Notes: generated from the letters alone by a model not told the origin. Shown: positions 2,287 to 51,214, numbered from the stretch's first letter. The stretch is DNA of 64,000 nt from an uncultured delta proteobacterium (GCA_963711835.1 CAVQFQ010000010.1:128001-192000), one strand, 5' to 3'. Program-made: numbers and translations.

Positions 2287-3291
2287 TTGCAGGTTCATCC
2301 TAATCCTTCTCAAACATTTCCTAATGGAGAAACACCCTTGAATGTGGCACCGGTTGATAGGCCCCTGTCAGCCCACTTCCAATTGAAACATTTTTTGGCC
2401 CTATCCCGAACTCCCCATGGATTGTTGGATATGGCTACCCCGGCTCTGGCGGCCCTTTTATGCTACGGCGCCTTCCCGCCGCTGCGGGTGATCCTCCTGG
2501 GTCTAATGACGGCCTTTGCCGGGTACACTGCCGTTTATGCCCTTAACGATTTGTTGGATTTTCGGGGAGACAAAGAAAAATTGGAGCAAGGCGGTTTTCG
2601 GAACACGGAGAATTACCTGGATGCCGTCCTGGTGCGCCACCCCATGGCTTACGGATTGCTGGGTTTCAAGGAAGCCCTGATCTGGGCCATCGCCTGGGCC
2701 TTGCTGGCGCTGATCGGTGCCACCCTGCTAAACCCGTGGTGTGCGGTTTTCTTCCTGAGCGGTTGCGCCCTGGAAACCGTCTATTGCCTTATGTGGAGGA
2801 CCAGTCACCTTCGGACGATGGTAAGCGGGGCTGTAAAGACAGCAGGGGGGATGGCCGCGGCCTTCGCCGTGGATCCCAGCCCTTCCCTTCCCTTTCTCCT
2901 GGTCCTTTTTTTGTGGCTTTTCTTCTGGGAGATCGGGGGGCAAAACATTCCTGCCGATTGGACCGATATTGAGGAAGACCGGATGCTGAAGGCCAAAACG
3001 ATCCCGATCCGATTTGGACCGGATTGGTCCACGGTGCTGATCCTGTCCTCCCTCATCCTGGCGGTCGTGCTCAACGGCACCCTTTTCGCTTTTTCCCAAT
3101 TGGGATCCAAAATCCCTCCTCTGACCGCCTCGCTGTTTGCGGGGCTCTACCTCCTGCTTACCCCCGCCTACCAGCTCTACCGGACCAGGGAAAAACTTCA
3201 GGCCTCCCTCCTTTTCAACCGGGCCAGCTACTATCCCCTCTCCTTGCTCGCGGTGGTCAGCCTCAACCTCATGCTCTTAGATCTCAAGTGA
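2287..3291 (+). CDS. UbiA-family prenyltransferase (start uncertain)
   Basis: Multi-TM protein with aspartate-rich motifs NDLLD and DWTDIEED. Confidence 0.85.
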   Translation: MQVHPNPSQTFPNGETPLNVAPVDRPLSAHFQLKHFLALSRTPHGLLDMATPALAALLCYGAFPPLRVILLGLMTAFAGYTAVYALNDLLDFRGDKEKLEQGGFRNTENYLDAVLVRHPMAYGLLGFKEALIWAIAWALLALIGATLLNPWCAVFFLSGCALETVYCLMWRTSHLRTMVSGAVKTAGGMAAAFAVDPSPSLPFLLVLFLWLFFWEIGGQNIPADWTDIEEDRMLKAKTIPIRFGPDWSTVLILSSLILAVVLNGTLFAFSQLGSKIPPLTASLFAGLYLLLTPAYQLYRTREKLQASLLFNRASYYPLSLLAVVSLNLMLLDLK

Positions 3292-3303
3292 AAAGACGGG
3301 TGA

Positions 3304-4017
3304 ATGAAAGAGATTGATTCCCGGGAATTGTCAGAAGGCAACGGGCAAGATGGAAAGCCGGTCTATATTGCCCACCAGGGCAAAGTATTCGACGTGAGCG
3401 AAAGTAAATTGTGGAAAAGCGGCCTGCACATGAAGCGCCACCGGGCCGGAAAGGATCTTTCCACCGAGCTTCAGGCGGCGCCCCATGGAACCGAGGTCCT
3501 GGAGCGATATCCTCAGGTGGCCGTCCTGAAAAAGGAGGTGTTTCCCAAAAGGGAAATACCAAAGGCCCTGTCCCGGCTCCTTCTGCGGGTGCCCATGCTC
3601 CGGCGGCATCCCCATCCCATGACCATTCACTTCCCCATCGTCTTTATGTTCGCGGTTCCCCTGTTCACTCTTTTTTATCTTTTTACCGGGAACCGGGCCT
3701 TTGAGCTGACCGCCTTTCATTGCCTGGGGGTCGGGATTTTCTTCACCCCGGTGGCCATTGGGACCGGTTACTATACCTGGTGGCTGAACTACCTGGCAAA
3801 ACCCATCCGTCCCGTATCGATTAAAAAGAAGGTCTCGGTAACCCTGCTGATGATAGAAATCGCCGCTTTTCTCTGGAGAATAAAGGTGCCGGGAGTCCTG
3901 GAGAGCGTCAGTCTTTCCAGCCTGATCTACCTGGTGCTCATTTTCTCCCTCTTTCCCCTGGTCACCGTCATCGGCTGGTTCGGCGCCCGGTTGACCTTTC
4001 CCATCGAAAGAGATTAA
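3304..4017 (+). CDS. Cytochrome b5-like heme/steroid-binding domain fused to a DUF2231-like membrane domain
   Basis: YIAHQGKVFDVS, HMKRHRAG, APHG; then HPMTIHFP and about four TM helices. Confidence 0.8.
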   Translation: MKEIDSRELSEGNGQDGKPVYIAHQGKVFDVSESKLWKSGLHMKRHRAGKDLSTELQAAPHGTEVLERYPQVAVLKKEVFPKREIPKALSRLLLRVPMLRRHPHPMTIHFPIVFMFAVPLFTLFYLFTGNRAFELTAFHCLGVGIFFTPVAIGTGYYTWWLNYLAKPIRPVSIKKKVSVTLLMIEIAAFLWRIKVPGVLESVSLSSLIYLVLIFSLFPLVTVIGWFGARLTFPIERD

Positions 4018-4278: not shown

Positions 4279-4875
4279 TTATCCTTCCTTGACGGCGACA
4301 CCCAGCAGGGCGAAGCGCTTCAGTTCCAGGGCCTTTTTAAGGGGGAGACCGGCCTGCTTCAGCTCCTCTCGCAAGTCGTGGCTTAAAAAACGGTCTTTCG
4401 GAGGGTGGAAGAAGATCTTCCGGGCAATGAAATTCTGGTAAAGGGCCGGGTAGAGTTCCTCGATATAATAGGCACCGTCCGGCTTCAGGACCCGGGCGAT
4501 TTCCCCCAGAGCGGCGCGCCAATCCACTACGTGATGGAGGACGCCGAAACCGAAAACCGCATCCACGCTCCCCGGATCCAGGGGCAGGCAGGAGACATCC
4601 CCCACAAAAAGGCGGGCCTCTCTTTCTTTCCGAACGGCCGGACCCCGGTGGGCCATCCGGACCATCCGGATATCCAGGTCCATGGCATAAAGCCTCGAGA
4701 GCTGAAACTCTCTGACGAGTATGGCAGCTCCGGCGCCCCGGCCGCAGCCCACCTCAAGGGCGGTAGAACCCGGCTTGAGAGACATCATTGCCTTGAGCTT
4801 CCGGATCTCGATCCGTTGCTCCCAAACCCGGAAGGGATTATTCACCGCGCAGCGTTCAGCCCAGTTCAGTTTCAC
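4279..4875 (-). CDS. Class I SAM-dependent methyltransferase
   Basis: LEVGCGRG motif I, DAVFGFGVLHH, RVLKPDG. Confidence 0.88.
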   Translation of the reverse strand: MKLNWAERCAVNNPFRVWEQRIEIRKLKAMMSLKPGSTALEVGCGRGAGAAILVREFQLSRLYAMDLDIRMVRMAHRGPAVRKEREARLFVGDVSCLPLDPGSVDAVFGFGVLHHVVDWRAALGEIARVLKPDGAYYIEELYPALYQNFIARKIFFHPPKDRFLSHDLREELKQAGLPLKKALELKRFALLGVAVKEG

Positions 4876-4934: not shown

Positions 4935-5750
4935 TCAGGATTCATCTTTGAGGCCCAGATGGATGGCCGCAATACCGTTGGTCAGTTTCCGGTAGGTGAC
5001 TTGGGAGAAACCGATCTCCTCCAGAATGGTGCTCAGTTTCTGCGGAGAAGGAAACATCCTGATCGACTCGGGCAGATACGTATAGGCCTGCCGCGACCCC
5101 ACGAGGAGAAGCCCTAAAAAGGGCATAATGCGGAAGGAATAGAAATCGTAAAGCTGGCGAAAGAGAGGTGCGGTCGGTTTCGAGAACTCGAGACACATGA
5201 ACCTTCCCCCGGGTTTCAGGACGCGGTACATCTCTCTGAACCCTTCCTCCAGGTGCGTCAAGTTCCGGATCCCAAAACCCACCATGGCGCCGTCAAACTC
5301 CTGAGATCCAAAGGAGATTTTTTCGGCATCGCCCTGGACATAGAGGATTTTCTCCCGGGAAGCCCTGTTGCTGGACTTGCCTTTCCCGGTTTCCATCATC
5401 TTGCGGTTAATATCATATAAAACCACCTTTCCGGAAGGATGGACCTTTTTCACGGCCAGGATGGATAGATCGCCGGTTCCCCCGCAGACGTCGATAACCC
5501 GGTCACCCGGCCTCAAGCCCAAGAACCCGATGGCCTTTCTTTTCCAGAGGTAATGAATCCCGAAGCTCAAGACGGTGTTCATTACGTCGTACTTCCGGGC
5601 GACCGTATCAAAATGTTCTCGTACCCACTTGACCTTTTCCGGGGCCGGAATTTTTCGGAATCCGAAATGAGCCGTCTCCCCTTCCGTCTCAACCGGAGCG
5701 ACGGACTCCGGTTTGCCGGTTTCAGGGTTGGAAGGGGTAAAAAGGTTCAT
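4935..5750 (-). CDS. ubiE: UbiE/MenG quinone C-methyltransferase (start uncertain, could extend to 5795)
   Basis: KYDVMNTVLSFGIH, DVCGGTGD, FGIRN, RVLKPGG, LEFS, YTYLPESI signature motifs. Confidence 0.9.
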   Translation of the reverse strand: MNLFTPSNPETGKPESVAPVETEGETAHFGFRKIPAPEKVKWVREHFDTVARKYDVMNTVLSFGIHYLWKRKAIGFLGLRPGDRVIDVCGGTGDLSILAVKKVHPSGKVVLYDINRKMMETGKGKSSNRASREKILYVQGDAEKISFGSQEFDGAMVGFGIRNLTHLEEGFREMYRVLKPGGRFMCLEFSKPTAPLFRQLYDFYSFRIMPFLGLLLVGSRQAYTYLPESIRMFPSPQKLSTILEEIGFSQVTYRKLTNGIAAIHLGLKDES

Positions 5751-5938
5751 CGTTTCGTTTAATTGGTTTTTTGCGGGGGTATCCAGACTGACCAAAAGAT
5801 AACGGGACGGCCGGAGACTGTCAAGAGGTTTTGCGGTCTAAGCCCGGCTTCTTGACTTTGCGGCAAGGAATCTTAATTTAAGATTAGTTTTTTTCTTAAC
5901 TTTTTTTTGAGGGAATGAAAATTCCCGGGAGGAGACCG

Positions 5939-6612: not shown

Positions 6613-8301
6613 TTGAAGGTTTTTAGGAGACTCACCGTCATCACGAGGGTGATGATCAAACACGGCCTGGGGGATGTGCTGGAACGTCTCATCGGCCGCC
6701 AAGGGAAGAAAGAAAAAGGGGGCAAGGATAAAGATCTCTTTTTTAGATCAGGATTTCCTTCGCCCAAACGCATCCGCCTGGCCCTGGAAGAATTGGGTCC
6801 CAGCTTCATCAAGCTGGGGCAGCTCATGAGCACCCGGGCGGATATGTTCCCGCCTGAATACATCGAGGAATTCATAAAACTTCAAGACCGTGTGCCCCCC
6901 GTTCCCTTCCCGGAGATCAAAAAGGTCATCGAGGACGAACTGAAAGGCCCCCTCGCGGGAATTTTTAAGGAATTCCATTCGGAACCGATCGCCGCAGCCT
7001 CGGTGGCCCAGGTCCACCTGGCTGAACTTCCGACCGGGGAGCGGGTGGCTGTCAAGGTGATCCGCCCGGGGATCGACAAGAAGATCCGCCAGGACATCCG
7101 TCTGATGGTTTACCTGGCCGAAAAGATCGAAAAAAATTTCGAGATGGGCCGGATCCTGGGGGTGACCAACCTGGTCCAGGAGTTTGAACGAATCATTTTT
7201 AGAGAACTCGACATGTTCATTGAAGCCGGGAGCATGGAGAAGTTTGCGCTGAACTTCAAGGAAGTCGAGGAAATCCATATCCCCAAGGTTTACTGGAACT
7301 TTACTACCCGGTCGGTCCTGGTTATGGAACACATCGACGGGTTCAAAATGGACCAGGTGGAGGCCATCAAGGCCCGGGGCATCGATCCCAAGGAAATCGC
7401 CAACATCGGCCTCCGTTCCTTTTCCCGGCAGTTGATGGAATTCGGCTTTTTCCATGCCGACCCGCATCCCGGCAATACCATCGTCATGCTTGACGGCCGG
7501 GTGGCCCTGGTGGATTTCGGTATCACCGGGTACCTGGACGAACAGATGATGCACCAGATCGCCAATATCTTCCTGGGCTATGCCGAACACGATTACGACC
7601 TGGTCCTGGAAGCCCTCCGGGAGGCCGGGATCATCGACGAACAGACCAGGGACCTTAAGAGTTTCCAGATCGATCTCAAGGACATCAGCGAGCCTTTTTA
7701 CGGCCGCTCCCTGCAGACCATTTCGGTCAGGGATGTCTATGATCAGGTGATGCACCTGGTCTTTAAATACCGCCTTCGGCTCCCCCGAAACCTTTTGCTT
7801 CTTTTGAAAACATTCATTCAAACCGAGGCCCTGGGAAAAATCCTGGGCAGTAACGCCAGCCTTCTCGAAGCCGTCCGACCGTACGCCCAGAAACTGGTTG
7901 AGCGCAGCACCGAAACCGGAGAACTGGTCGGGCGCCTGGTCAAGGATGTCCGCCGCCTGGGAGGCTACCTGGAAGCCATGCCCAAGTTTTTCCACGACAT
8001 CCTCAAACAGACCGCCGAGGGGAAACAGCGCTGGGAAATCCAGCACAGCGGCTTTAAAAACCTGGACGCCCAGTTTGCCAAGGGGGTAAACCGGCTGACC
8101 GTGGGATTGATTATTTCCGCCTCCATCATCGCCGCCGCCATGATCTTGAATTCCAGCCAGAAGGTTTTCGAGGTGACCTTTAACCTCTTTGGCTTGAAGA
8201 CCATTTCCGTTACCGCCCTTTTCGGCCTGGCCGGCTATATTATCGCCACTATCCTGGGCCTTTGGCTTATCTTCTCCATCCTGCGGTCCGGAAAACTCTG
8301 A
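6613..8301 (+). CDS. ubiB: UbiB/AarF/ABC1-family atypical kinase
   Basis: LGPSFIKLGQ, AAASVAQVH, VAVKV, FFHADPHPGN, DFG; C-terminal TM helices. Confidence 0.9.
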   Translation: MKVFRRLTVITRVMIKHGLGDVLERLIGRQGKKEKGGKDKDLFFRSGFPSPKRIRLALEELGPSFIKLGQLMSTRADMFPPEYIEEFIKLQDRVPPVPFPEIKKVIEDELKGPLAGIFKEFHSEPIAAASVAQVHLAELPTGERVAVKVIRPGIDKKIRQDIRLMVYLAEKIEKNFEMGRILGVTNLVQEFERIIFRELDMFIEAGSMEKFALNFKEVEEIHIPKVYWNFTTRSVLVMEHIDGFKMDQVEAIKARGIDPKEIANIGLRSFSRQLMEFGFFHADPHPGNTIVMLDGRVALVDFGITGYLDEQMMHQIANIFLGYAEHDYDLVLEALREAGIIDEQTRDLKSFQIDLKDISEPFYGRSLQTISVRDVYDQVMHLVFKYRLRLPRNLLLLLKTFIQTEALGKILGSNASLLEAVRPYAQKLVERSTETGELVGRLVKDVRRLGGYLEAMPKFFHDILKQTAEGKQRWEIQHSGFKNLDAQFAKGVNRLTVGLIISASIIAAAMILNSSQKVFEVTFNLFGLKTISVTALFGLAGYIIATILGLWLIFSILRSGKL

Positions 8302-8617: not shown

Positions 8618-10036
8618 ATGGACGAACAAAAATATGAGATCGGTCTTATCGGCCTGGGTGAGATGGGCCGTAATCTGGCCTTAAATATTGCCGACCATGG
8701 AATTCCCATTGCGGTTTATAACCGGACGGCTGAAAAGACCCGCCGATTCATGGAAGAAGAAGCCGCCGGACGAGTGATCGAAGCGGCTTACGGCCTGCCG
8801 GAATTCATCGGAAGGCTTCGCCAACCCCGGGCCGTTTTAATGCTGGTCTCCGCCGGCCAGGCTGTGGACGAGCTGATCCGGGAGCTTCTCCCCCTGTTGG
8901 AACCAAAAGATGTACTTATCGACGGCGGCAATTCCTTTTTTGAGGACACCGATCGCCGGCAGCGGGAATTGGCGGATAAGGGGATTCTTTATCTGGGACT
9001 AGGGATCTCCGGAGGCGGCTCAGGGGCCCGTTACGGCCCCAGTCTAATGCCCGGCGGCACCCTGGAGGCCTATGAGCGGGTACGTCCGGTCCTGGAGACC
9101 ATTGCCGCCAGGGTCAACGGCCTTCCCTGTGTGACCTACCTGGGAACGGGGTCAGCAGGCCACTATGTCAAGATGGTCCATAACGGGATTGAATACGGTC
9201 TGATGCAATTGATCGCTGAAGCCTATCACCTCCTCAAACAGGGACTGGGCCTGAATAACAACGATTTGCACCTGGTGTTTAATCGCTGGAATCAAACCGA
9301 ACTCAGAGGCTACCTGGTAGAAATTACAGGCCGGATCTTTCTCCAGGAGGAAGAAAGAAGTGAAGACCGGCTGATCGATCGGATCCTGGATCAAGCCGGA
9401 CAAAAAGGAACAGGCCTCTGGACTTCCAGAAACGCCCTGGAATTGCAGGTTCCGGTGCCGACCATCGATCTGGCGGTGATGATGCGGGACCTGTCCGCAT
9501 CGAAAGAGGAGCGCCGGGCCATCAATCGGGTTCATGGGAGTCTCGTTCTTCCTCTTGAGGGTGACCGGGAAGGTTGGATTGCCGATATCGGTCAGGCCCT
9601 TTTAGGCGGCCTGATTTTAACCTACGGCCAAGGCCTGTCCTTGCTCCGCAAGGCCTCCGGGGTGTATCATTACGGAATATCCCTGGGAGAGGTGGCCCGC
9701 ATCTGGCGCGGCGGCTGTATTATCCGGGCTGTCTTACTGGAAAAAATTTGGGCCGCCTACCGGGTGCAGCCGGACCTGGTTCATCTGCTACTGGATCCTG
9801 ACCTGGCTGAAGATATGAAGTCCTGCCAGGAGCCCCTGCGACGGATCAGCAAAACGGCTGTGGAGCTGGGCATCCCTGCCCCGGGACTGACAGCCTCCCT
9901 GGCTTATTACGACGGCTTACGGAGCCCTTGGCTGCCGGCCAATCTCATTTCCGCCCAACGCGATTATTTCGGCGCCCACAGGTATGAAAGGGTGGATAGT
10001 CCGGGTTTTTTCCACACGGATTGGAAAACGGATTGA
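8618..10036 (+). CDS. gndA: 6-phosphogluconate dehydrogenase, decarboxylating (NADP-type)
   Basis: [34 protein letters not shown]. Confidence 0.95.
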
Positions 10037-10047
10037 GGAGAACAACT

Positions 10048-11610
10048 ATGGCGACTGATCCCCATCCCCGGTCAACCGTTTTTGTCATTCTGGGTATAGG
10101 CGGAGATCTGGCCTGGCGCAAGCTGATCCCGGCCCTCTATGACCTCTTTCTGGAAAACCGGCTGCCCGAAAAATACCTGATCATCGGCCTGGGCCATAAA
10201 TCCCTGGAGGACGAGGCCTTTAGCGAACACCTGCGCCAGGGTGTGAAGCAATTCTCCCGGCACAAAGAAACGGACGGCCAGGGCTGGAAGACCTTTCTCT
10301 CCCATTTCATCGTCCAAAACGCCGACTTCGGGGACCCTCAGGTCTATGCCCAATTGGCCAGGCAGCTTTCCGGCCTGGATAAGGAATGGGAGACCAAGGC
10401 CATCCGAATTTTTTATCTGGCCGTGCCGCCCAAAGCCATTGCAACCATTGTGGAACAGATCGGCAGGGCCCGGATCGCCAGGGAACGGGAACGGACTCGG
10501 GTTGTAATCGAAAAACCCTTCGGCCATGATCTGGCTTCGGCCAGATCACTCAATAAAATCCTAAATCAGGTCTTCGAGGAATCCCAGATTTATCGGATTG
10601 ATCACTACCTGGGAAAGGAAACCGTCCAGAATATCCTGGCCTTCCGTTTTGCCAACGCCCTCTTTGAACCGGTCTGGAACCGGCGTTACATCGATCACGT
10701 ACAGATTACCGTGGCCGAGCAGGTCGGCGTGGAACACCGCGGCCATTACTATGACCAGGCCGGGGCCCTGCGGGACATGATTCAGAATCACCTCATTCAG
10801 ATCCTGTGTTTGATCGCCATGGAGCCGATGATCTCTTTTGAAGACAACGAGATCCGAAACAAAAAAGTGGATGTCCTCCACGCCATCCGCCTGATCCCGG
10901 CGGATGAAATCCATAAGGTTGTGGTTCGAGGCCAATACGATGCCGGATGGATCGAAGGAGAACACGCCCCGGCCTATCGCAGCGAAGTGAATGTTTCCCC
11001 CGAATCCTCCACCGAGACCTACGCGGCCGTCAAACTCTTCCTGGACAACTGGCGCTGGCAGGATGTACCTTTTTATCTGCGTACCGGAAAACGGCTGCCG
11101 GCCAAGGTTTCCGAAATCAATATCCAGTTTCGGCCGGTTCCCCATCAGATCTTCCCCTCCTCGACGGTTTTGGATTGGAGGCCCAACCGCCTGCTCATTT
11201 CCATCCAACCTCTGGAGGGAATTTTGCTTCGCTTCCAGGCCAAACACCCCGGGGAGACGATGCGCTTAAGCCCGGCGGATATCCAGTTCTATTACCAGGA
11301 GGCCTTTAAGGTCCCCCTGCCCGAGGCCTACGAAACCCTGCTTCTGGATATGATGCTGGGGAATGCCGCCCTCTTCATGCGCGCCGATGAGGCGGAGGCG
11401 GCCTGGGCCGCCATTTCTCCGATCATGGAAGCCTGGGAAGCGGTCGTCCCGGCCAATTTTCCCAATTACCAGGCCGGCACCTGGGGCCCGGAGGCGGCTG
11501 AATATTTGATAGCCCGGGACGGGCGGAGTTGGATCATGCCCAGCCTGCGCCGCTACCAAGAAGTCCTGCTCCGCTGCCAGGTCCCGGAGGGAAAACGCCC
11601 GGAGATTTAA
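10048..11610 (+). CDS. zwf: Glucose-6-phosphate 1-dehydrogenase
   Basis: [34 protein letters not shown]; RBS GAGGAG before ATG 10048. Confidence 0.95.
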
Positions 11611-26385: not shown

Positions 26386-26461
26386 AGTGAGAAAAAGGAT
26401 TCGATCTTCATGATCATAGCCAGTGGAAAAATCAGGTTACATGCTGAATGGGTAGAAATGG

Positions 26462-37652: not shown

Positions 37653-37656
37653 GCCT

Positions 37657-40929: not shown

Positions 40930-40946
40930 AAAAGAAAGGCCGGGTT

Positions 40947-41228
40947 ATGCAATTTTTCCCTCTGTTGACCTTTCAGGAAATGGCCCTGGCCTTTTTTCTG
41001 GGTCTGGGTACGGTCCTCCTTATTTATCTGGCCTGGGGGAGTTATCCTAAACGCCGGTTGGAGGATACCTGCCGGGAGGAAAGGGAGGAAGGCCATGAGC
41101 CTGAAAGCGGACCCGAGGCGCCCGATCATCCCGTTCCTCCTTTTCTCATTTTCGTGTATATCGGTGTTGCGGTCTGGATCCTGGCCTACCTGATTTTTAT
41201 CGGTCTGAGGGTCAAGGCTATTGGATGA
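40947..41228 (+). CDS. Small two-TM hypothetical protein in the oxidase operon
   Basis: Two hydrophobic segments around an acidic loop; tight gene packing. Confidence 0.65.
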   Translation: MQFFPLLTFQEMALAFFLGLGTVLLIYLAWGSYPKRRLEDTCREEREEGHEPESGPEAPDHPVPPFLIFVYIGVAVWILAYLIFIGLRVKAIG

Positions 41229-41231
41229 TTT

Positions 41232-41546
41232 GTGATCAAGGAGGCGATTCTAAAAGCCGTGAGGATTAAGGAAAGCAAAGAAGAATCGACAGTCCGAAGC
41301 TGGGTCATTGTCCTGTCCATAGCTGTTTCCTTTCTGATTTGGGGACTGGTCATTTTCTATGCAGTCGGGACAAGCTGGCCCCCACCCTGGCGTTACGGGA
41401 CTGTGGCCGATGTGCCGGGCCAATCCATCTATTCGGTTGGTGAGGCGGAAAAGCCGGCCGGGACGGCTCTGAAGGAAAAGGAGAAAATCCGGGAACAGCA
41501 CGTCAGGGGTTCCCGGGAAGGATCCGGAGGATCCCTGGCCAAATGA
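41232..41546 (+). CDS. Small single-TM hypothetical protein
   Basis: One TM helix then PPPWRYGTVADVPGQS; ATGA overlap with the next gene. Confidence 0.6.
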   Translation: MIKEAILKAVRIKESKEESTVRSWVIVLSIAVSFLIWGLVIFYAVGTSWPPPWRYGTVADVPGQSIYSVGEAEKPAGTALKEKEKIREQHVRGSREGSGGSLAK

Positions 41547-42076
41547 AGATCCTCAATTTATTTTGGAGAAAAAAATTTTTATTCCTGGGTATTTTCCTGG
41601 GCCTGTCAGCCGGACTGCTTTTATTACTTTCAATCGTATACAGTTTCCGGTTCTTCCGGATGTGGGATGACGAGGCCCTGAATACCTTCCAGGTTTCCCT
41701 GCCGGTCATGCCCCGGGGCACCATCCCGGTCGGTGGAGGGATAGCCCTTTTGAGAAATGCAGGTCCGAAACAGCTGATCAACCCGTTGCCCATTTCCCCG
41801 GCGGTCATAGAGCGGGGAAGGATAAGTTATAAGTACTATTGCATCCATTGCCATGGGACCGGATTCGACGGCCAGGCCACGGTGGGACAAAGCTTTTATC
41901 CCTTACCGACCTATCTCCTGGGCCCAAAGGTGATGGACCAGAGCGATGGAGAGCTTTTTTATAAAATCAGCCTGGGCTATAAGAGGGAACCGCCTTTGTA
42001 TGACACCGTGGCGGTCCATGACCGCTGGGCCGTCATCAACTATCTGCGGACTCTGGCTAAGAGGAGCAGCCGATGA
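41543..42076 (+). CDS. Monoheme cytochrome c, ActE-like
   Basis: MP.GTIP, NPLP, CIHCHG, SDGELF..I..G, DRWAVINYLR. Confidence 0.75.
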   Translation: MKILNLFWRKKFLFLGIFLGLSAGLLLLLSIVYSFRFFRMWDDEALNTFQVSLPVMPRGTIPVGGGIALLRNAGPKQLINPLPISPAVIERGRISYKYYCIHCHGTGFDGQATVGQSFYPLPTYLLGPKVMDQSDGELFYKISLGYKREPPLYDTVAVHDRWAVINYLRTLAKRSSR

Positions 42077-42771
42077 CCTTGGAACTTCTGGCCCCTTTCC
42101 TGATCGGACTTTTCGGAAGCCTCCACTGCCTGGGGATGTGCGGTCCTCTGGTCATAGCCTACTCCCTGCACATCAAAACCCCTGAACCTCGGGCCATAGT
42201 CCTTAATCCGTCTCCCTGGGCCAGGGGATTTTCTCATCACCTGGCCTATCATTTCGGAAGGCTCACGACCTACGGGATTTTGGGCGCTTTGGCCGCTGGT
42301 CTTGTTAATATCGCCGGCTTTAATTTATTTCTGAATTTCCGCGGCGGGGCCATCCTGGTCGGCGGTCTCCTGATCATCCTGATGGGACTGATGTTCCTCA
42401 AGGTGATCCCTTTATCCGGTGCATTGGCCCGGTTCTCCCTGGCCCCTTCATCCCTGTGGGACCGTTGGCTTCCTCCTCTGTTTCAATCCCCCGGTCCCAT
42501 TTCCAAGATAGGCCTGGGACTGGCCGGCGGGCTCCTGCCCTGCTGCCTCTCCGGTTCCATGCTCATCAAAGCGGCGACCACTGAAAATATGGCGCAAGGA
42601 TTTATGACCATGGCGGCCTTCGGCCTGGGCACCGTGCCCGCCCTCCTGGCCGCAGGCATCTCCGCCTCCCTGTTAACCCTGCGGACGAAGATCATCGGAG
42701 AAAGGATAGCCGCCCTTTCGGTGATAGCCATGGGGTTGATGCTGATCTTCCAGGGTGCGAAGCTCCTCTAA
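42073..42771 (+). CDS. DsbD_2 / TauE-SafE-like membrane protein (cbb3 maturation)
   Basis: GSLHCLGMCGP, GLLPC, FGLGTVP. Confidence 0.85.
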   Translation: MTLELLAPFLIGLFGSLHCLGMCGPLVIAYSLHIKTPEPRAIVLNPSPWARGFSHHLAYHFGRLTTYGILGALAAGLVNIAGFNLFLNFRGGAILVGGLLIILMGLMFLKVIPLSGALARFSLAPSSLWDRWLPPLFQSPGPISKIGLGLAGGLLPCCLSGSMLIKAATTENMAQGFMTMAAFGLGTVPALLAAGISASLLTLRTKIIGERIAALSVIAMGLMLIFQGAKLL

Positions 42772-42872: not shown

Positions 42873-42883
42873 AGACAATTGCT

Positions 42884-45487
42884 ATGAGCTTTTTGGAATG
42901 CAAACTTTGCGGTTTGCCTGTTGGTCGTTCGGGAGTACAGGAAAAGCGAGGGGAAAAAGTTTTCCATTTCTGCTGTTTCGGCTGCCAACAGGTGTTCCGT
43001 ATCCTTTCCAGCCTTCCCGGAGGTCCGCCGTCCGACTTTAAAAACTCGGACCTTTATCGCCTCTGTGCGGCCTCTGAGCTGATCGGCAGGAAGGATGAAG
43101 ACCAGGAAAGAAGCATGGCTCAAGGTAAGGAAGCAGGTCCGACAGCCCTGAAAGCCTCCGGCCTGGAAGAAGCTCTGGCCAAAGAATTGATCCTAAAACT
43201 TGAGGGGATGTGGTGTAGTGCCTGTTCCTGGTTGATTGAAAGTGTATTGAGCCGGACTCGGGGGGTATTGGAGGTAAAGGCTCTGTTCGCCTCCGATCTG
43301 GTCCGGATTAAATACCTTCCTCATCAGGTGACGATAGAGGAAATCCAGGACCGGATTTCCAACCTGGGATATCGGCCTTCCTCCTTTCAGGATCCAGCGG
43401 ATGCTTCAGCGGAAAGAAAAAAAGTACAATTGCGTCTTGGTATTTCCTCTATTCTGACGGTCCAAGTTATGATGATCTCCTTAGCCCTTTACGGCGGCTT
43501 TTTTCAGGATCTGGGGAACGAGGCCATTCTCTATCTCTCCTATCCCCTGTGGATCCTGACTACCCCGGTCCTTATTTATGGAGGATTCCCCATTTTTAAA
43601 AAAGCCCTGGCCGGATTGCGCTATGGAAATCCATCCATGGAAGTCCTTATTTCCATCGGCGCCCTGTCGGCCTATTTTTACAGCCTCATCCAGATGAGTC
43701 GAGGCAGTCTGCACCTTTATTTCGATACGGCCGCTATGCTGATCGTCTTGGTCCTCCTGGGAAAGTATCTGGAGGCCCAGGCCAAGGAAAGGATTTCCCA
43801 AGGTATTATGGAACTCTATCAACTGGCCAATCAAAAAGTGCGAATCTTGACGGAAAGAGGGGAGGAATGGCGAGCGGCCGAGGAGGTGCAACCCGGGGAC
43901 GAATTACAGGTCTTGGCTGGGGAAAGGGTCCCCGTAGACGGCCGGATCCTTTTCGGACGGGCCAATATGGATGAATCCTATTTGACCGGGGAGTCGCGTC
44001 CGATAAAAAAAGGGCCCAAGGACGAGGTCCGAGCAGGCGCTTTGCTTCTCGACAACCAGCTGAATATCCGGGCCACCCGCGTGGGGGCTGAGAGTTCTAT
44101 TGGTCAGATCATTACTTTGATGCAGGAGGGCCTGTCCAGGAAGACCGCTGTCGAACTTTTTGCCGATCGGCTGACCCGCTGGGTCGTACCTTCACTCTTA
44201 GGCTTAGCCACCGGAACCGCGTTGGTTCTGGCCTATCACGGCCATTCGTTGGAGGAGAGTCTGCTGCGGGCCTTAACGATACTGGTCATTTCCTGCCCCT
44301 GTGCCCTGGGGATTGCCACCCCTCTGGCCAAGGTGGCGTCCATCGGCGTCGGTCGAACAAAAGGAATCCTCATCCGGGATCCGGCGGCCCTGGAAAAAAT
44401 AAGAAAGTTGGACGTCTTGATCTTCGATAAGACCGGGACCTTGACCGAAGGCCGTTTTTCCTTACGTGAAATGGTTTGCCTCGAAGGCTCCAGGGAAGAG
44501 GCCTTGCAAAGAATTGCTTCGGTTGAGTCCTTTTCCGATCACTTCCTGGCCCGGGAGATTCAAACCCAGGCCCGAGAGTTTTCCTTGAGCTTAGGGGAAG
44601 TGAAAGACTTCGAGATCCTGACTGGTTTGGGGGTCAACGGAGTAGTTGCAGGCATTGAGGTGGTCGTCGGGAATCGAAACCTGATGCAGTCTCGGGGGCT
44701 GAAACTTCCACTGACTTTTGAGTCTCAGGCAAGGGTCCTATCGAACGGGGGAGCGACTATCGTCTTTTTCGGCTGGGAGGGGCAGGTTCAGGGATTCCTG
44801 GCCTTTGGGGATGCGCTAAAGGAAACGGCCCGTGAGGCCGTTTCGGGCCTTCAAGAAAAAGGTTTTCAGATCTGGATGGTTTCCGGAGACTCCATAGAGA
44901 CTACCGGGGCCATCGCCCGGGAACTGGAAGTGGGACCTTCTATCGGGCAGGCCCTGGCCCAGGACAAGGTCCGCATCATTAAAGATCTCCAGCAGAAAGG
45001 ACATCGGGTGGGCATGATTGGGGACGGGCTTAACGACGCAGCGGCCCTGGCCCAGGCGGATGTGGGCTTTGCTCTGGGGACCAGGGCCGGAATTCTTTCG
45101 GAGGCCTCGGATATCACTCTATTAACCGATGATCCCCTAAAGATCCGGGATGTGCTACACCTTTCCACTCTGAGTTTTACGATTATTCGACAAAACCTCC
45201 TTTTTGCTTTTTTTTATAATATACTTGGAATTCCTCTGGCCATGACCGGTATGTTAAACCCTTTGATTGCGGTTCTGGCCATGTTTGCCAGCAGCCTGAC
45301 CGTGGTCGGGAACACTCTGAGAATTTATAAAGGTTCAGGTGAAAAGATTGGGAAAACCCATTCAATCGACCCGGCAGTTCAACACGTCGGGCAAGAGGGA
45401 CCCAAGATGGCAGCGGTACTGCCAACAGTCCGGCCCGCGGAATGCTTGAATCCGGAGACCGGGATCCAGTCTGGAACGCTCCTGTAG
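42884..45487 (+). CDS. ccoI: CcoI/FixI-type copper P1B ATPase
   Basis: C..CG...FCC.GC N-terminus, HMA motif CSAC, TGES, CPC, DKTGT, GDGLND; located in the cco cluster. Confidence 0.88.
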   Translation: MSFLECKLCGLPVGRSGVQEKRGEKVFHFCCFGCQQVFRILSSLPGGPPSDFKNSDLYRLCAASELIGRKDEDQERSMAQGKEAGPTALKASGLEEALAKELILKLEGMWCSACSWLIESVLSRTRGVLEVKALFASDLVRIKYLPHQVTIEEIQDRISNLGYRPSSFQDPADASAERKKVQLRLGISSILTVQVMMISLALYGGFFQDLGNEAILYLSYPLWILTTPVLIYGGFPIFKKALAGLRYGNPSMEVLISIGALSAYFYSLIQMSRGSLHLYFDTAAMLIVLVLLGKYLEAQAKERISQGIMELYQLANQKVRILTERGEEWRAAEEVQPGDELQVLAGERVPVDGRILFGRANMDESYLTGESRPIKKGPKDEVRAGALLLDNQLNIRATRVGAESSIGQIITLMQEGLSRKTAVELFADRLTRWVVPSLLGLATGTALVLAYHGHSLEESLLRALTILVISCPCALGIATPLAKVASIGVGRTKGILIRDPAALEKIRKLDVLIFDKTGTLTEGRFSLREMVCLEGSREEALQRIASVESFSDHFLAREIQTQAREFSLSLGEVKDFEILTGLGVNGVVAGIEVVVGNRNLMQSRGLKLPLTFESQARVLSNGGATIVFFGWEGQVQGFLAFGDALKETAREAVSGLQEKGFQIWMVSGDSIETTGAIARELEVGPSIGQALAQDKVRIIKDLQQKGHRVGMIGDGLNDAAALAQADVGFALGTRAGILSEASDITLLTDDPLKIRDVLHLSTLSFTIIRQNLLFAFFYNILGIPLAMTGMLNPLIAVLAMFASSLTVVGNTLRIYKGSGEKIGKTHSIDPAVQHVGQEGPKMAAVLPTVRPAECLNPETGIQSGTLL

Positions 45488-45601: not shown

Positions 45602-46453
45602 ATGAAAAGGCAATTTATTCCCTCGGCCGATCCTCCGATTGAACAAAAAGAGCCGGCCTGGTGGTTTATATTTTATAAGCACAAGCTGCTCGTTTCTCCC
45701 GAGGGCCACGAGCCGACCATCCCCTTTATCCATAGCCCGATTGATCTTGGACTCCACTCCCTTGGAGAAACCTATCTGGGAACCCTGGAAGGAAAACATT
45801 GTTATGCCGCGACCCTTTCCGATTCAGCGACGGCTCCGACTGATATGTTTTTCCAGGACCTGCGACAACTTTACGGCCGACTGAACCAGGAATTGATCCT
45901 TCTTTCCTTTCGTGCCCTTCATCTTCTCAACTGGTCTCAAAAGACCCGATTCTGCAAGCAATGCGGGATGGAAATGAAAAACAAGGCCGGTCAGCAGGCC
46001 AGAGAATGTCCAAACTGCGGATACTTGAGCTTTCCCCGGATCTCACCGGCGGTGATCGTTCTGGTTGAACGGGGAGAGAAATGTTTACTGGCCCGCTCCC
46101 TCCGTTTCCAGGATGGGTTTTACAGCGTCCTGGCCGGTTTTGCCGAACCGGGAGAAACGCTGGAAGAGACGGTTGAGCGTGAAGTGAGGGAAGAGACCGG
46201 CATCGCGGTCCAGGATATCCGCTATTTCGGGAGCCAGCCTTGGCCTTTCCCGGACTCTCTGATGATCGCTTTCACCGCCCGGTATGCTGGTGGTGAGATC
46301 CGGGTGGACGGCACGGAGATCCTGGATGCCCAATGGTTTACCTGTGACCAACTGCCCAAAATTCCGGGCAAGATCAGTATAGCCAGAAATTTGATCGACT
46401 GGTTTATAATCAAACAGCAAAGAAAGTGGAACGGCTTTTGTAAGGAGGGATGA
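45602..46453 (+). CDS. nudC: NAD(H) diphosphatase NudC
   Basis: FCKQCG/CPNCG zinc finger, Nudix box, SQPWPFP. Confidence 0.92.
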   Translation: MKRQFIPSADPPIEQKEPAWWFIFYKHKLLVSPEGHEPTIPFIHSPIDLGLHSLGETYLGTLEGKHCYAATLSDSATAPTDMFFQDLRQLYGRLNQELILLSFRALHLLNWSQKTRFCKQCGMEMKNKAGQQARECPNCGYLSFPRISPAVIVLVERGEKCLLARSLRFQDGFYSVLAGFAEPGETLEETVEREVREETGIAVQDIRYFGSQPWPFPDSLMIAFTARYAGGEIRVDGTEILDAQWFTCDQLPKIPGKISIARNLIDWFIIKQQRKWNGFCKEG

Positions 46454-47145: not shown

Positions 47146-48510
47146 ATGAAAAGCTATGACGTTATTGTCATCGGTGCGGGAGATGTCGGTTTAGGAATTG
47201 TTTTTAAAGCCGTCGCCCAAGGCCAAAAAGTGGCTCTGGTCGATAAGGGGCAGGTGGGCGGGACCTGTCTTAATTATGGCTGTGTGCCTTCGAAAACGCT
47301 GATCTATACGGCCGATAGAATTATGGAGATCCGGGGAGCGGCAAAATTTGGGATCCAGTCACCCATCATAGATATCGACTTCAAAGCCATCATGGCTCGG
47401 ATGAGGAAAGCCGTCACCGGCGGCAAAAACGGGATTGGAACGGCCATAGAGGAATCTGAAAATCTTGATTTTCTAAACAGCGAAGGTCATTTTATTGATG
47501 AACGGTTCCTCCAAGTGGGGGATAAAAAAATACGCGGAAAAAAAATATTTATTGCCAGCGGCGCACGCCCCTCGATTCCTTTGATCAAAGGACTGGAATC
47601 GATTCAGTTTCTGACCAATGAAAATGTGCTGGAATTGGAGAAAAGGCCGGAGAGCATGATCTTTATCGGCGGTGGATATGTCGGCCTGGAATACGCCCAT
47701 TTCTTTTCGGTCTTGGGCACCAAGGTCGCCATCCTGCACAGGCATTCGACCTTCCTGCCTTTTGAAGAGCCGGAAATATCCGAATTGCTAAAGAAGGAAA
47801 TGGAAAAATCTATCGAACTGCATTTGGGGGTCGAAACCCAAGAAGTAAGACAGACCGACAAGGGGTATATGGTGCTCGCCAAGGACATCCGTACCGGGGA
47901 AGAAAGGGAAATTTCTGCGGAAGCGCTCTTTGTGTCGGCCGGCAGAAAATCCAACGCCGATCTTTTAAAGGTTGAAAATGCCGGAATCGAGACCGACCCC
48001 CACCATTTTATCAAAGCGGATGACACCCTTCAGACCAACAAGAAACACATCTGGGCCCTGGGGGATGCTATCGGAAGGGCGATGTTTACCCATGCAGGAG
48101 ACAAAGAAGCGGAATTGGCCTGGCACAATGCCACCCACAGGAAAAAGATCAGGATGGATTTCGAAAACGTCCCCCATGCGGTTTTTACCAATCCTCAAAT
48201 TGCTTCTATCGGACTGACAGAGGCGCGGGCTCGAAGAGACCACGAAATCCTCGTGGGCCGGGCCAAATACTCCGATACCGTCATGGGAGAGGCTATGGAG
48301 GAACAGGAAGGATTTGCAAAGGCGATCGTCGAAAAGGGTACGGGAAGGATTCTGGGTTTTCATATCATTGGTCCTCAGGCGGCCATGCTCATCCAGGAAG
48401 TGGTCAATTCGGTGATCAACAAGAAGGACGTAAAATCGATCACCGATTGTATGCACATATTCCCCGCCCTTTCCAACCTGATACCGGAAACATTAACCAA
48501 TCTCGAATAA
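47146..48510 (+). CDS. Pyridine nucleotide-disulfide oxidoreductase (dihydrolipoamide dehydrogenase-like)
   Basis: VIGAG, GGTCLNYGCVPSK, GGGYVGLE, GD, HIFP. Confidence 0.88.
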   Translation: MKSYDVIVIGAGDVGLGIVFKAVAQGQKVALVDKGQVGGTCLNYGCVPSKTLIYTADRIMEIRGAAKFGIQSPIIDIDFKAIMARMRKAVTGGKNGIGTAIEESENLDFLNSEGHFIDERFLQVGDKKIRGKKIFIASGARPSIPLIKGLESIQFLTNENVLELEKRPESMIFIGGGYVGLEYAHFFSVLGTKVAILHRHSTFLPFEEPEISELLKKEMEKSIELHLGVETQEVRQTDKGYMVLAKDIRTGEEREISAEALFVSAGRKSNADLLKVENAGIETDPHHFIKADDTLQTNKKHIWALGDAIGRAMFTHAGDKEAELAWHNATHRKKIRMDFENVPHAVFTNPQIASIGLTEARARRDHEILVGRAKYSDTVMGEAMEEQEGFAKAIVEKGTGRILGFHIIGPQAAMLIQEVVNSVINKKDVKSITDCMHIFPALSNLIPETLTNLE

Positions 48511-48667
48511 CGCCCCGGAAAGGAAACTTTCCATTTGAACACAACACCGTCCAGGATGGACCCGCAGGCCCCCAGCCGTAGCTCGCGGAACTGTTAAAGG
48601 GAGAGCATGACCAAGCAGGTAGCCGAGCCAGAGGGACCGGATCAAGCAAAGTGGAGGGAGAGAACTC

Positions 48668-51214
48668 ATGGACAAGCCCAAAAGGGTTAGTAGCCCTATT
48701 TATACTTTTTTCCCCACCGAAGTCGAGGGATTCGATTCCCTGGCCGAGCTGGCGCTGGATATGCACTTGTATTGGAATCATTCGGCCGATGAAGTATGGA
48801 GGCAGCTTGATCCTGCTCTGTGGGAGCTCACTTATAACCCCTGGGTCGTCCTGCAAACGATCTCACGGGACGGACTCACTCGTGCCTTAGCTGATCCGGT
48901 TTTCCGTAAGAAGGTAGATGAACTCTTACGAGACAAGCGCCATGAGGAAGAGACTCCCGCCTGGTTTCAACAAAACTATTCGCAGACACCGCTGACCTGT
49001 GTGGCCTATTTCAGTATGGAGTTCATGTTGAGCGAAGCCCTGCCCATCTATTCGGGCGGGCTTGGCAATGTGGCCGGCGATCAGCTCAAAACCGCCAGTG
49101 ATCTGGGGGTGCCGGTGGTCGGCGTGGGGCTGCTTTACCAGCAAGGCTATTTTCGCCAAGTCATAGACAAGGACGGAGCACAGCAGGCCCTCTTTCCGTA
49201 CAACGACCCCGGCCAATTACCGATAACGCCTTTGCGCGAACCGAACGGGGAGTGGCTGCGGCTGGAACTCACGTTGCCCGGTTACTCGGTCTGGCTGCGG
49301 GCCTGGCAGGTCCAGGTCGGCCGGGTGAAGCTGTATTTGCTCGACAGCAACGACCCGGCCAACTTCCCGGCTCGTCGAGGGATTACCAGCGAGCTGTATG
49401 GTGGCGGCCCGGAGTTACGTCTCAATCAAGAGCTGGTACTCGGGATCGGCGGATGGCGCCTACTGGGCGCACTGGGTCTTAAACCCGAAGTCTGCCATCT
49501 GAATGAAGGGCATGCGGCCTTGGCCGTGTTGGAACGGGCGCGAACTTTTATGGAAGAGACCGGACAACCCTTCGAAGTCGCCCTGGCCGTCACAAGAGCG
49601 GGCAACCTCTTTACTACCCATACGCCGGTGGCCGCCGGTTTTGATTGTTTTGCTCCTGTTCTCATCGAACACTATCTCGGTTGGTACGCCCAGAACAAGC
49701 TGGGCATCTCGCTCCACGATCTGCTGGCCCTTGGCCGCCGGAACCCGAACGATTCATTGGAACCCTTCAATATGGCTTACCTGGCCGTACGAGGCAGCAG
49801 GGCGGTCAACGGGGTAAGCCGCTTGCACGGGCAGGTGAGTCGGCGTATCTTTCAGATTCTTTTTCCGGGCTGGCCGGAGGACGAAGTGCCGGTGGGACAT
49901 GTGACCAACGGGGTCCATATGGCAAGCTGGGATTCGGAAGAGACCGACGCCCTGTGGACAGGATCATGCGGAAAGGACCGCTGGATTGGAACCTTGGAGA
50001 CCCTGGAAGAAGACATACGCGGCCTTCCCGACTACCGGCTCTGGGAATGCCGTGCTTCAGCTCGCCAGTCGCTCATTGAATATGTACGGGAACGGCTTTC
50101 CAGACAACTGGAAGCCGCCGGCGCATCACCCGAGGAGGTTGAGGGTGCGAAGCATCTGTTTGACCCCAACGCCTTGACGCTGGGTTTTGCCCGCCGCTTT
50201 ACTACCTATAAGAGACCTAACCTGCTGTTGCACGATCCGGAGAGGCTCCTGCGTATCCTTACCGATCCCCGGCACCCCGTGCAACTCATTATTGCCGGAA
50301 AGGCCCATCCGGCCGACCTTGCCGGGCAGGCCATGATTCAGGAGTGGACGGATTTCATCCGGCGGGACAAGGCCCGTAATCAGGTGATCTTTCTGAGCGA
50401 CTACGACATGCTTTTGACCGGGCAATTGGTGCAGGGGGTGGATGTCTGGATCAACACACCCAGGCGACCCTGGGAGGCCTGCGGGACAAGCGGCATGAAG
50501 GTGCTCGTCAATGGAGGCCTCAATCTTTCCGAGCTGGATGGCTGGTGGGCGGAAGCCTACCGACCGGAAGTGGGGTGGTCGTTGGGGGACGGCAGGGAGC
50601 ATGAAGACGAGCCGGCTTGGGATGCTGCCGAAGCCGAGGCCCTTTACGATCTGCTCGAACAGGAGGTTATCCCCGAATTCTATACCCGCGATGAGAACGG
50701 CATCCCCACGGCCTGGGTGGCACGCGTTCGGGAGAGCATGGCGCAGTTGACGCCGCGATTCTCCGCCAACCGCACGGTGCGCGAATACACCGAGCAACAC
50801 TACCTCCCGGCTGCGGCCGCCTACCGTGAGCGCGCTGCCGATAAAGGCACGGTGGGCAGGCAGGTGGTCGATTGGCAGCAGGCCCTGGAACAGAGATGGG
50901 CCACGCTGCGCTTCGGAGAAGTGAAGGTGGAATCCGACGGGGAACAGCACGTCTTTGAAGTTCAAATATATCTCGATGACCTCGATCCGAAGGCCGTGCA
51001 AGTCGAGCTTTATGCCGAAGACGCCAACGGCGACGGCCCGGTGCGGCAGGAGATGAAGCGCCTTCGCCGGCTGACGGGCGCATCGGGCGGTTATGTTTAC
51101 AGCGCATCGGTACCTGCGGCCCGCCCGGCCAATGATTATACGGCGCGGGTGATACCGCGCTTCCCAAGCGTTCGGGTGCCTCTCGAAGCTGCTCGAATCC
51201 TATGGCAAAAGTGA
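48668..51214 (+). CDS. glgP: Alpha-glucan (glycogen) phosphorylase
   Basis: YSGGLG, HLNEGH, FARRF..YKR, EACGTSGMK (PLP lysine). Confidence 0.93.
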   Translation: MDKPKRVSSPIYTFFPTEVEGFDSLAELALDMHLYWNHSADEVWRQLDPALWELTYNPWVVLQTISRDGLTRALADPVFRKKVDELLRDKRHEEETPAWFQQNYSQTPLTCVAYFSMEFMLSEALPIYSGGLGNVAGDQLKTASDLGVPVVGVGLLYQQGYFRQVIDKDGAQQALFPYNDPGQLPITPLREPNGEWLRLELTLPGYSVWLRAWQVQVGRVKLYLLDSNDPANFPARRGITSELYGGGPELRLNQELVLGIGGWRLLGALGLKPEVCHLNEGHAALAVLERARTFMEETGQPFEVALAVTRAGNLFTTHTPVAAGFDCFAPVLIEHYLGWYAQNKLGISLHDLLALGRRNPNDSLEPFNMAYLAVRGSRAVNGVSRLHGQVSRRIFQILFPGWPEDEVPVGHVTNGVHMASWDSEETDALWTGSCGKDRWIGTLETLEEDIRGLPDYRLWECRASARQSLIEYVRERLSRQLEAAGASPEEVEGAKHLFDPNALTLGFARRFTTYKRPNLLLHDPERLLRILTDPRHPVQLIIAGKAHPADLAGQAMIQEWTDFIRRDKARNQVIFLSDYDMLLTGQLVQGVDVWINTPRRPWEACGTSGMKVLVNGGLNLSELDGWWAEAYRPEVGWSLGDGREHEDEPAWDAAEAEALYDLLEQEVIPEFYTRDENGIPTAWVARVRESMAQLTPRFSANRTVREYTEQHYLPAAAAYRERAADKGTVGRQVVDWQQALEQRWATLRFGEVKVESDGEQHVFEVQIYLDDLDPKAVQVELYAEDANGDGPVRQEMKRLRRLTGASGGYVYSASVPAARPANDYTARVIPRFPSVRVPLEAARILWQK

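Follow-up and report, generated by a model that had tools for sequence, protein, structure and literature searches.

This work deals with a gene neighbourhood of an uncultured delta proteobacterium that spans positions 2287-51214 of a 64,000-nucleotide (nt) stretch of DNA (GCA_963711835.1 CAVQFQ010000010.1:128001-192000; hereafter the window, in whose numbering coordinates are given). Genes of the quinone biosynthesis type, of the pentose phosphate pathway (PPP), of respiratory complex I, of alternative complex III (ACIII) and of a cbb3-type oxidase lie there one after another, followed by genes for NudC and an alpha-glucan phosphorylase. An earlier note on this DNA had proposed that they form a self-contained module leading from storage carbon to oxygen in a probable anaerobe lineage. 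When the six-frame open reading frames (ORFs) of the window were scanned with Pfam and NCBIfam, every one of these gene classes was recovered, and the remark that almost all of them share one strand also held, the only genes on the minus strand being two for methyltransferases and one for a HAD hydrolase. Chance is not enough to explain the arrangement, since the same order recurs in contigs of relatives. The neighbourhood probably acts as a single chain that would carry electrons from stored glucan to oxygen at low levels, a reading to which we give slightly better than an even chance.

The PPP genes and those of complex I form one tightly packed set (plus strand, as all genes below unless stated). 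It opens with gnd, for 6-phosphogluconate dehydrogenase (8618..10036; PF00393, E 3e-110), and zwf, for glucose-6-phosphate dehydrogenase (10021..11610; PF02781, E 1e-125), the latter being the sole copy in the genome and belonging to a distinct clade whose members often adjoin nuo genes. A transketolase gene (tkt, 11648..13480; NF004559, 887 bits, cut-off 488) and a gene of the transaldolase/fructose-6-phosphate aldolase family (tal, 13477..14340; PF00923, E 1.5e-44) come next. The gnd and zwf genes overlap, as do tkt and tal, and a gap of 43 nt separates tal from nuoA. Positions 14383-29486 then encode a complex I with the full 14 subunits NuoA-NuoN, including NuoEFG: NuoA (14383..14853; PF00507), a NuoB-NuoC-NuoD fusion whose frame is broken at 16647 (14696..17282; NF009808, 975 bits), NuoE (17294..17788; PF01257, E 4.6e-41), NuoF (17794..19065; PF01512, with an alignment to E. 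coli NuoF, 7AWT_F, at E 1.7e-116), NuoG (19121..21619; TIGR01973, 517 bits, cut-off 470), NuoH (21616..22614; PF00146, E 1.5e-124), NuoI with an in-frame TGA at 23113-23115 (22765..23349), NuoJ and NuoK (23457..24277; PF00499, PF00420), and NuoL, NuoM and NuoN (24499..29486; three PF00361 matches and PF00662). Two of these genes depart from a plain reading, since nuoD lies in two frames and nuoI needs read-through of its TGA. Between nuoN and actB lie a small Cys-rich ORF (29556..29816) with weak zinc-ribbon matches, whose position is kept in two relatives of another genus (G001 and G004, introduced below), a phasin-like ORF and the minus-strand HAD hydrolase gene.

The second set comprises ACIII and the oxidase. 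ActB (31461..34424) carries the twin-arginine leader KRRDFLK and belongs to the Tat-exported class in which a molybdopterin-like domain is fused to a 4Fe-4S domain; its best solved relatives are the ACIII B chains of 6LOD, 6F0K, 8K9E and 6BTM (E 1e-114 to 1e-130). It is followed by ActC, of the NrfD type (34499..35827; PF03916, E 1.3e-25), ActD (35843..36349; PF11821, E 4.2e-38) and ActF, a second NrfD-like subunit (36225..37652), whose match to PF03916 is weak (E 7e-5), whose position is matched in at least 30 ACIII loci, and whose true start probably lies downstream of 36225. ActA (37612..38196) is a pentaheme cytochrome c of 194 residues with four CxxCH motifs and one CxxxCH, whose best solved relatives are the ACIII A chains 8K9E_A (9e-33) and also 6F0K_A, 6LOD_A and 6BTM_A. 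Beyond it lies CcoN (38300..39694; PF00115, E 6.6e-79), a catalytic subunit of the C family (cbb3), which matches solved cbb3 structures at 4e-68 to 2e-57 and other types of oxidase or nitric oxide reductase at about 1e-6, and which scores 280 bits on TIGR00780, under the cut-off of 583. CcoO (39691..40671; PF02433, PF13442) is fused to a C-terminal monoheme c domain and has two CxxCH motifs; the locus is without a separate diheme CcoP. Two small membrane proteins of 129 and 104 residues (40839..41546), without a family match and kept in position in nine loci, precede ActE (41543..42076), a monoheme cytochrome c of 177 residues with an N-terminal anchor and one CxxCH, which matches 6LOD_E (1.3e-13), 6F0K_E (5.9e-13) and 6BTM_E (6e-5), as well as the gene preceding actF in 20 canonical ACIII loci of other phyla. 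Since the 194-residue pentaheme and the 177-residue monoheme proteins match ACIII A and E chains, the ACIII is complete, with six subunits ActA-ActF. The gene order, actB-C-D-F-A, ccoN-ccoO, two small genes and actE, departs from the canonical actABCDEF in layout, not in subunit composition. It is kept in nine related loci, down to 55% ActB identity, and most of them continue to dsbD and ccoI where the contig allows. This interleaving of ACIII and cbb3 genes suggests one functional unit. As for the maturation genes that the earlier note had mentioned, a membrane protein of the DsbD_2 family (42073..42771; PF13386, E 9.7e-41) and a copper P1B-type ATPase in the CcoI/FixI position (42884..45487; TIGR01511, 440 bits, cut-off 397) are present, and no further one was recognised: CcoG, CcoH and CcoS were not recognised in the scans of the window, the rest of the genome not having been searched for them. 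At the abstract level of the literature, no paper was found on a PPP-complex I operon or on this ACIII-cbb3 layout in Desulfobacterota.

The remaining genes flank these two sets. Downstream are NudC, an NAD(H) diphosphatase (45602..46453; NF001299, 279 bits, cut-off 158), a pyridine-nucleotide disulfide oxidoreductase with a CLNYGC redox pair (47146..48510; PF07992, PF02852) and the alpha-glucan phosphorylase (48668..51214; TIGR02094, 795 bits, cut-off 192), the sole copy in the genome. Upstream, a UbiA-family prenyltransferase (2287..3291; PF01040, E 2.4e-28; NCBIfam matches weak) has more than 4000 metagenomic homologues, none of tested function. Its assignment as MenA was discarded because MenA was located on another contig of the genome (C7), so the window gene is an extra prenyltransferase; the futalosine marker PF02621 was not found in the host genome. 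The neighbouring membrane protein (3304..4017; PF09990, PF00173) joins a DUF2231 domain to an N-terminal cytochrome b5-like domain, and its gene accompanies the UbiA-like gene in f1, G070 and G381 as well. On the minus strand follow a class I S-adenosylmethionine methyltransferase (4279..4875; PF08241, E 4.8e-20) and a UbiE/MenG quinone C-methyltransferase (4935..5795; PF01209, E 5e-77; TIGR01934, 256 bits, cut-off 158), for which tblastn revealed no second copy in the genome and which is probably housekeeping, because it is the only one. The same protein scores 282 bits (cut-off 335) on the model of MpqE, a methyl-plastoquinone methyltransferase, nearly equalling the UbiE models. A low-complexity minus-strand ORF at 5838-6335, without a family match, was dropped as probably non-coding. 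A UbiB/ABC1 atypical kinase (6613..8301; PF03109, E 2.3e-78; TIGR01982, 430 bits, under the cut-off of 488) closes this group. No tRNA was found in a scan of the window. Its last part (57508-64000) holds a nitrogen-control cluster with amt, two glnB-type PII genes, glnD and glnA, and genes for MgtA, a DUF202 protein, an MFS transporter and a porin-like protein lie upstream of this cluster.

The two irregularities within complex I called for separate explanations. In the nuoD part at 16640-16666, a surplus T at position 16647 throws the frame off; its deletion restores the sequence of G004, where the gene is intact. A short contig of sequencing run X3, about 96% identical, is without the extra base; for this reason, and because two genes elsewhere in the genome (malQ and a TIGR00275 flavoprotein gene, both on contig C5) are also split, each into two frames, the frameshift is probably an assembly error. 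The TGA of nuoI is of another kind. It aligns with Cys102 of E. coli NuoI, a [4Fe-4S] ligand that we take to belong to cluster N6b in a ferredoxin-type fold. The codon at this place is TGA in four of the eight orthologues of the host's family (those of G000, the host itself, and of G001, G031 and G032, from three genera) and TGC in the other four; two genera hold both states, TGA being accompanied in every case by downstream GCG and ACT, and TGC by other synonymous codons. The 77 codons after the TGA are conserved, and a stretch of 23 nt is identical in all four TGA forms. In the 42 genomes outside the family with a matching NuoI, no stop was found. The machinery for selenocysteine is present in the genome, with tRNA-Sec on contig C1 and with SelB (385 bits) and SelA (639 bits) above their cut-offs. 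A putative selenocysteine insertion sequence (SECIS) hairpin can be drawn at about 23116-23152, with a loop CGUGU starting 17 nt after the TGA and a consensus energy of -6.3 kcal/mol; on folding, such hairpins were no stabler than shuffled sequence (z +0.5 to +1.3), and none of 12 pairs was compensated. A single contig (run X5) lies over the TGA, with only 12 nt on one side, which is too little to bridge it. Taken together, the codon is probably read as selenocysteine, which would then serve as an Fe-S ligand in complex I. The literature searches made for it brought up no report of a selenocysteine NuoI, and a review of 2026 (PMC13188914) does not contain the terms 'Nuo', 'complex I' or '4Fe-4S'.

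A further peculiarity concerns the nucleotide that complex I might use. Residues 172-177 of NuoF (18307-18324 in the window) read GETKGL, versus GEETAL in E. coli, with Thr and then Lys aligned to what we take to be Glu183 of the E. coli protein. The NADH-specific GEE motif is absent from the window protein, and 27 of 37 orthologues examined in the phylum lack the second Glu (having T, A, V, G or S), while 10 keep it; the Lys that follows occurs in all six family members and in none of the 31 others. In Gnd, the motif NRT stands after the first beta-alpha-beta unit, which presumably marks an NADP-dependent enzyme. The idea that loss of the NuoF Glu tracks adjacency to PPP genes was rejected: G401, a genome of another family with PPP genes beside nuo, keeps GEET. 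The loss is a trait of the clade. According to the portion of PMC10671435 consulted, replacement of Glu259 by R, G, H or Q in FdsB, a homologue of NuoF, gives activity with NADP, and in E. coli complex I the exchange of a Glu at a similar site for Gln or His raises the affinity for NADPH (citing Morina et al. 2011). The complex I of the window may thus use NADPH, which is offered as a hypothesis and not as a finding.

Comparison with relatives indicates how the array came about. The family comprises 21 genomes, among them the host (G000) and two genomes of another genus, G001 and G004, at 70-90% protein identity. These two share the arrangement over its full length: the quinone genes come first, then the PPP, nuo, ACIII, cbb3 and ATPase genes, and the phosphorylase gene stands last. 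The cluster of G004 is without tkt, NudC and the disulfide oxidoreductase; in that of G001, zwf is reduced to a remnant and many reading frames are broken. The order recurs block-wise in six further contigs. One block is gnd-zwf-tkt-tal-nuoA-N; the other consists of the quinone genes plus actBCDFA-ccoNO, two small genes, actE, dsbD and ccoI. In G032, gnd-zwf-tkt-tal-nuoA-N lies on a contig of 0.86 Mb, and the UbiA-like, DUF2231 and UbiE genes with ACIII-cbb3 lie on one of 2.0 Mb; in G018 and G031, zwf-tkt-tal-nuoA-N is apart from the ACIII-cbb3 contig, and other DNA is inserted between nuoH and nuoI. The array thus appears to have been built by joining two older blocks, PPP-complex I and quinone genes-ACIII-cbb3. 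On the synteny that the earlier note had named as a check, relatives are divided: some have the blocks next to each other or present together, with the whole order in G001 and G004, and in G018, G031 and G032 the blocks are unlinked. Orthologues of CcoN occur in 13 of the 21 family genomes; a complex I of the window type, traced by NuoI, occurs in eight, all within those 13, and Zwf of the window type (at least 75% identity) is also found in eight.

A wider sample of 401 genomes of the phylum places these counts in perspective. A cbb3-type CcoN was present in 71 of them, this type of NuoI in 47 and a Zwf match (E <=1e-80) in 137, the clade of the window's Zwf (at least 55% identity) being found in far fewer than 137. 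Genes for Zwf of this clade stand beside nuo in G070, G078, G272 and G401, one from each of four further families and all of them DsrA-positive. The single-contig genome of G401 deserves particular attention. At G401:C1:1407001-1447000 it carries nuoA-N, gnd, zwf, a diheme cytochrome c, SCO1, COX1, COX3, COX2-c, a UbiA-family gene and rpiA. Behind these come a disulfide oxidoreductase gene, 59% identical to its orthologue in the window, and cydAB. G401, a distant genome, has thus assembled the same theme independently, with caa3 and bd oxidases.

The host, a member of the Desulfobacterota from a lineage of sulfate reducers, is not an ordinary aerobe. Its genome bin amounts to 3.9 Mb in 28 contigs, 89% complete and with 6.4% contamination, and includes DsrA (609 bits, above the cut-off) and DsrB on contig C21. 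The tetranucleotide correlation with the rest of the bin is 0.998 both for this contig and for C10, which holds the window. Loci related to the window come from metagenome-assembled genomes (MAGs) labelled Thermodesulfobacteriota or Deltaproteobacteria, and within the family DsrA is above the cut-off in 17 of the 21 genomes and AprA is present in 13, in keeping with the anaerobe lineage that had been suspected before. AprA was not found in the host bin, 89% complete as it is; G001 has no match, and G004 has fragments only. It is in these three genomes that the array is joined, and the missing AprA may reflect gaps in the bins or a real loss of sulfate activation. In the host genome, CcoN is the only heme-copper oxidase found, and cytochrome bd was not found. 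At G000:C8:59667-91551 lies another complex I-like operon, with NuoEFG-like genes behind it and a Qrc/ACIII-like paralogue next to it.

The carbon side of the route is divided between contigs. Phosphoglucomutase and 6-phosphogluconolactonase, which the earlier note had missed in the window, are indeed outside it; both exist in the genome, as Pgm (TIGR01132, 891 bits) and Pgl (TIGR01198, 210 bits, cut-off 124), side by side on C5 next to GpmA and MalQ (G000:C5:328000-340000). With these two genes outside the window's contig, the module is not self-contained, contrary to the earlier proposal. With Pgl from C5, the oxidative PPP is complete, Zwf and Gnd being encoded in the window, and the host genome has two GlgA genes.

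On the side of regulation, an FNR/CRP-type box (TTGATNNNNATCAA, two mismatches) gave 41 matches versus 26 expected, nearly all of them in coding sequence and none common to the upstream regions of the blocks, and offers no evidence on control by oxygen. A promoter and terminator scan of 28000-47500 yielded counts as in shuffles. Among five intergenic gaps one inverted repeat was found, of 14 nt with a 26-nt spacer, between ubiB and gnd (8412-8465), which may be a terminator or an operator. The 20 matching sequencing runs were all DNA contigs, covering at most 0.24 of the sampled words, and none was RNA.

These observations can be integrated in a model in which the glucan phosphorylase of the window and Pgm from C5 would make glucose-6-phosphate, which Zwf, Pgl (C5) and Gnd would oxidise, while Tkt and Tal would recycle the pentoses, such that hexose phosphate could be fully oxidised in a cyclic oxidative PPP. 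The resulting NAD(P)H would be oxidised by the complex I bearing NuoEFG, whose NuoF is without the Glu that discriminates against NADPH. ACIII would oxidise quinol, and from its ActA and ActE the high-affinity cbb3 oxidase would receive the electrons. The full chain from glycogen to cbb3 put forward in the earlier note is likely, since gene identities and co-occurrence hold, but it is not proven, nor is it self-contained. Its direct basis is the identity of the genes, their order, conservation and co-occurrence, and the dsr genes; what we infer is which way the electrons flow, how their flow is coupled, which nucleotide and which quinone take part, and how oxygen acts on regulation. A bolder version would have a natural complex I, NADPH-accepting and selenocysteine-bearing, in one operon with a cyclic oxidative PPP, burning stored glucan to CO2 and sending all electrons via complex I and ACIII-cbb3 to oxygen; this is conceivable, although we hold it to be doubtful.

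Several facts weigh against a single chain, and they are best considered together with the notion that the neighbourhood has no common function and is a lineage-specific set of independent units, namely quinone biosynthesis, a PPP for biosynthesis, a complex I for anaerobic respiration and an ACIII-cbb3 operon, of which only the ACIII-cbb3 operon would concern oxygen. The blocks are joined in only three of the 21 family genomes and lie on separate contigs in three others (G018, G031 and G032), and only G000, G001 and G004 have the glucan phosphorylase gene next to the array. G070, G078 and G381, which are 97-100% complete and DsrA-positive, are without any heme-copper oxidase, and yet this type of complex I has PPP and UbiA-like genes next to it in G070 and G078, and only the UbiA-like and DUF2231 genes in G381. 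Since the PPP-complex I block also occurs in these Dsr-positive genomes, it is not specific to oxygen and must serve anaerobic electron flow as well. Conversely, ACIII-cbb3 is found without this complex I in five family genomes, and the single UbiE, as said, is probably housekeeping. Upstream of actB, relatives have a conserved promoter-like motif (TTTACT, about 17 nt, TAAAAT) that is proper to the ACIII-cbb3 block, and the window differs there because the phasin-like and HAD genes are inserted, and no clear FNR-type site was found. To this must be added that contig C5, with pgm and pgl, has a tetranucleotide fit of 0.972 versus 0.998, in a bin with the contamination given above; that the loss of the NuoF Glu is independent of PPP adjacency; that no transhydrogenase was recognised while Gnd looks NADP-type by the motif, if we read it correctly; and that nuoD is frameshifted in this assembly. 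On the other side, all eight family genomes with this complex I have cbb3, G401 brought complex I, gnd-zwf and other oxidases together independently, and two genera, at the protein identities stated above, share the complete order. A neutral juxtaposition is therefore possible but, in our judgement, unlikely.

The main rival to the single chain is oxygen defence, in which cbb3 and ACIII would scavenge oxygen at oxic-anoxic boundaries and the NADPH from the PPP would serve thiol-based repair through the disulfide oxidoreductase, energy conservation being incidental. It would suit a host whose sole oxidase found is of the high-affinity type, a cluster that includes NudC and a CxxxxC disulfide oxidoreductase recurring by the oxidases of G401, and a Gnd that, on our assumption about its motif, looks NADP-type. 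The consulted part of PMC4287179 also describes sulfate reducers as using polyglucose reserves and having oxygen-reducing defences. However, a proton-pumping complex I of 14 subunits, ACIII and a pumping oxidase would be an expensive outfit if detoxification were the only purpose, the PPP genes cluster tightly with nuo and not with the oxidoreductase, and G004 keeps the cluster without either NudC or the oxidoreductase. We consider this explanation rather improbable, if somewhat less so than independent units. Decay of the module, with the nuoD frameshift and the nuoI stop inactivating a complex I that would have become a pseudogene cluster, could call upon the extra base, the TGA and the many broken genes of the G001 cluster. 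Against it stand the TGA at the same cysteine codon in four orthologues of three genera with conserved codons beyond it, the selenocysteine machinery, the intactness of the other 12 nuo genes, the metagenome contig lacking the extra base, and the split MalQ and TIGR00275 genes, which point to assembly indels. Decay is thus very unlikely.

If the chain from stored glucan to oxygen is real, it bears on how sulfate reducers are viewed, since they are modelled as strict anaerobes in sediments, peat and groundwater: a conserved, proton-pumping route from a sugar store to oxygen would explain the survival of some of them, and perhaps a gain of energy, at oxic-anoxic boundaries. Should the reading with NADPH and selenocysteine be correct, a classical anaerobe guild would possess a full aerobic engine for burning sugar. 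The comparative pattern, in which the same theme was assembled twice with different oxidases, makes three questions testable, namely whether the PPP is wired to complex I, whether a natural complex I can use NADPH, and whether selenocysteine can be an Fe-S ligand along the principal electron path of complex I.

Systems already known resemble the proposed chain in part. In cyanobacteria, glycogen feeds dark respiration and respiratory protection via glucose-6-phosphate and the oxidative PPP, through a membrane chain to an oxidase. The likeness lies in the path from glycogen through the oxidative PPP to a chain ending in an oxidase; cyanobacterial NDH-1, on the other hand, is without NuoEFG, ACIII and dsr genes are absent, and the genes are not clustered as in the window. 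In Desulfovibrio gigas, the NADH-rubredoxin-ROO chain, with its flavodiiron ROO, is soluble. The chain proposed here would be membrane-bound, with NuoEFG and tied to the PPP, whereas Desulfovibrio Nuo is without nuoEFG, according to the portion of PMC4287179 consulted; the same portion supplies the resemblance, namely that a sulfate reducer stores glucan and has enzymes that reduce oxygen. Another dsr-bearing organism, the Acidobacterium MAG CO124 (Dyksma and Pester 2023, PMC10564751), has complex I, ACIII and a cytochrome c oxidase, there responsive to oxygen, with ACIII and caa3 transcripts up under oxic conditions. It belongs to another phylum and has caa3 and bd oxidases without cbb3, and the part of the article consulted describes no PPP-nuo operon or supercluster.

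An ACIII with an adjacent heme-copper oxidase is found in Rhodothermus marinus (6F0K), Flavobacterium johnsoniae (6BTM) and Roseiflexus castenholzii (6LOD), which share with the window the six core subunits, each with the corresponding ACIII chain as its best solved relative, and an oxidase operon directly after them. Those systems have the canonical actABCDEF, while here actA comes after actF and actE behind the oxidase genes; the partner in the window is a cbb3 oxidase with a CcoO-c fusion, and the host carries dsrAB. The window's ActB is 30-37% identical to the Bacteroidota and Ignavibacteria forms. Finally, the NuoF, NuoI and C/D fusion of the window are closest to the chains of E. coli complex I, of which an engineered NADPH-using variant has reportedly been described (Morina et al. 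2011, J Biol Chem 286:34627). The window differs from the E. coli enzyme in fusing NuoB as well and in the TGA at the Cys102 position of NuoI, and the position altered in the engineered variant is naturally non-acidic in its NuoF.

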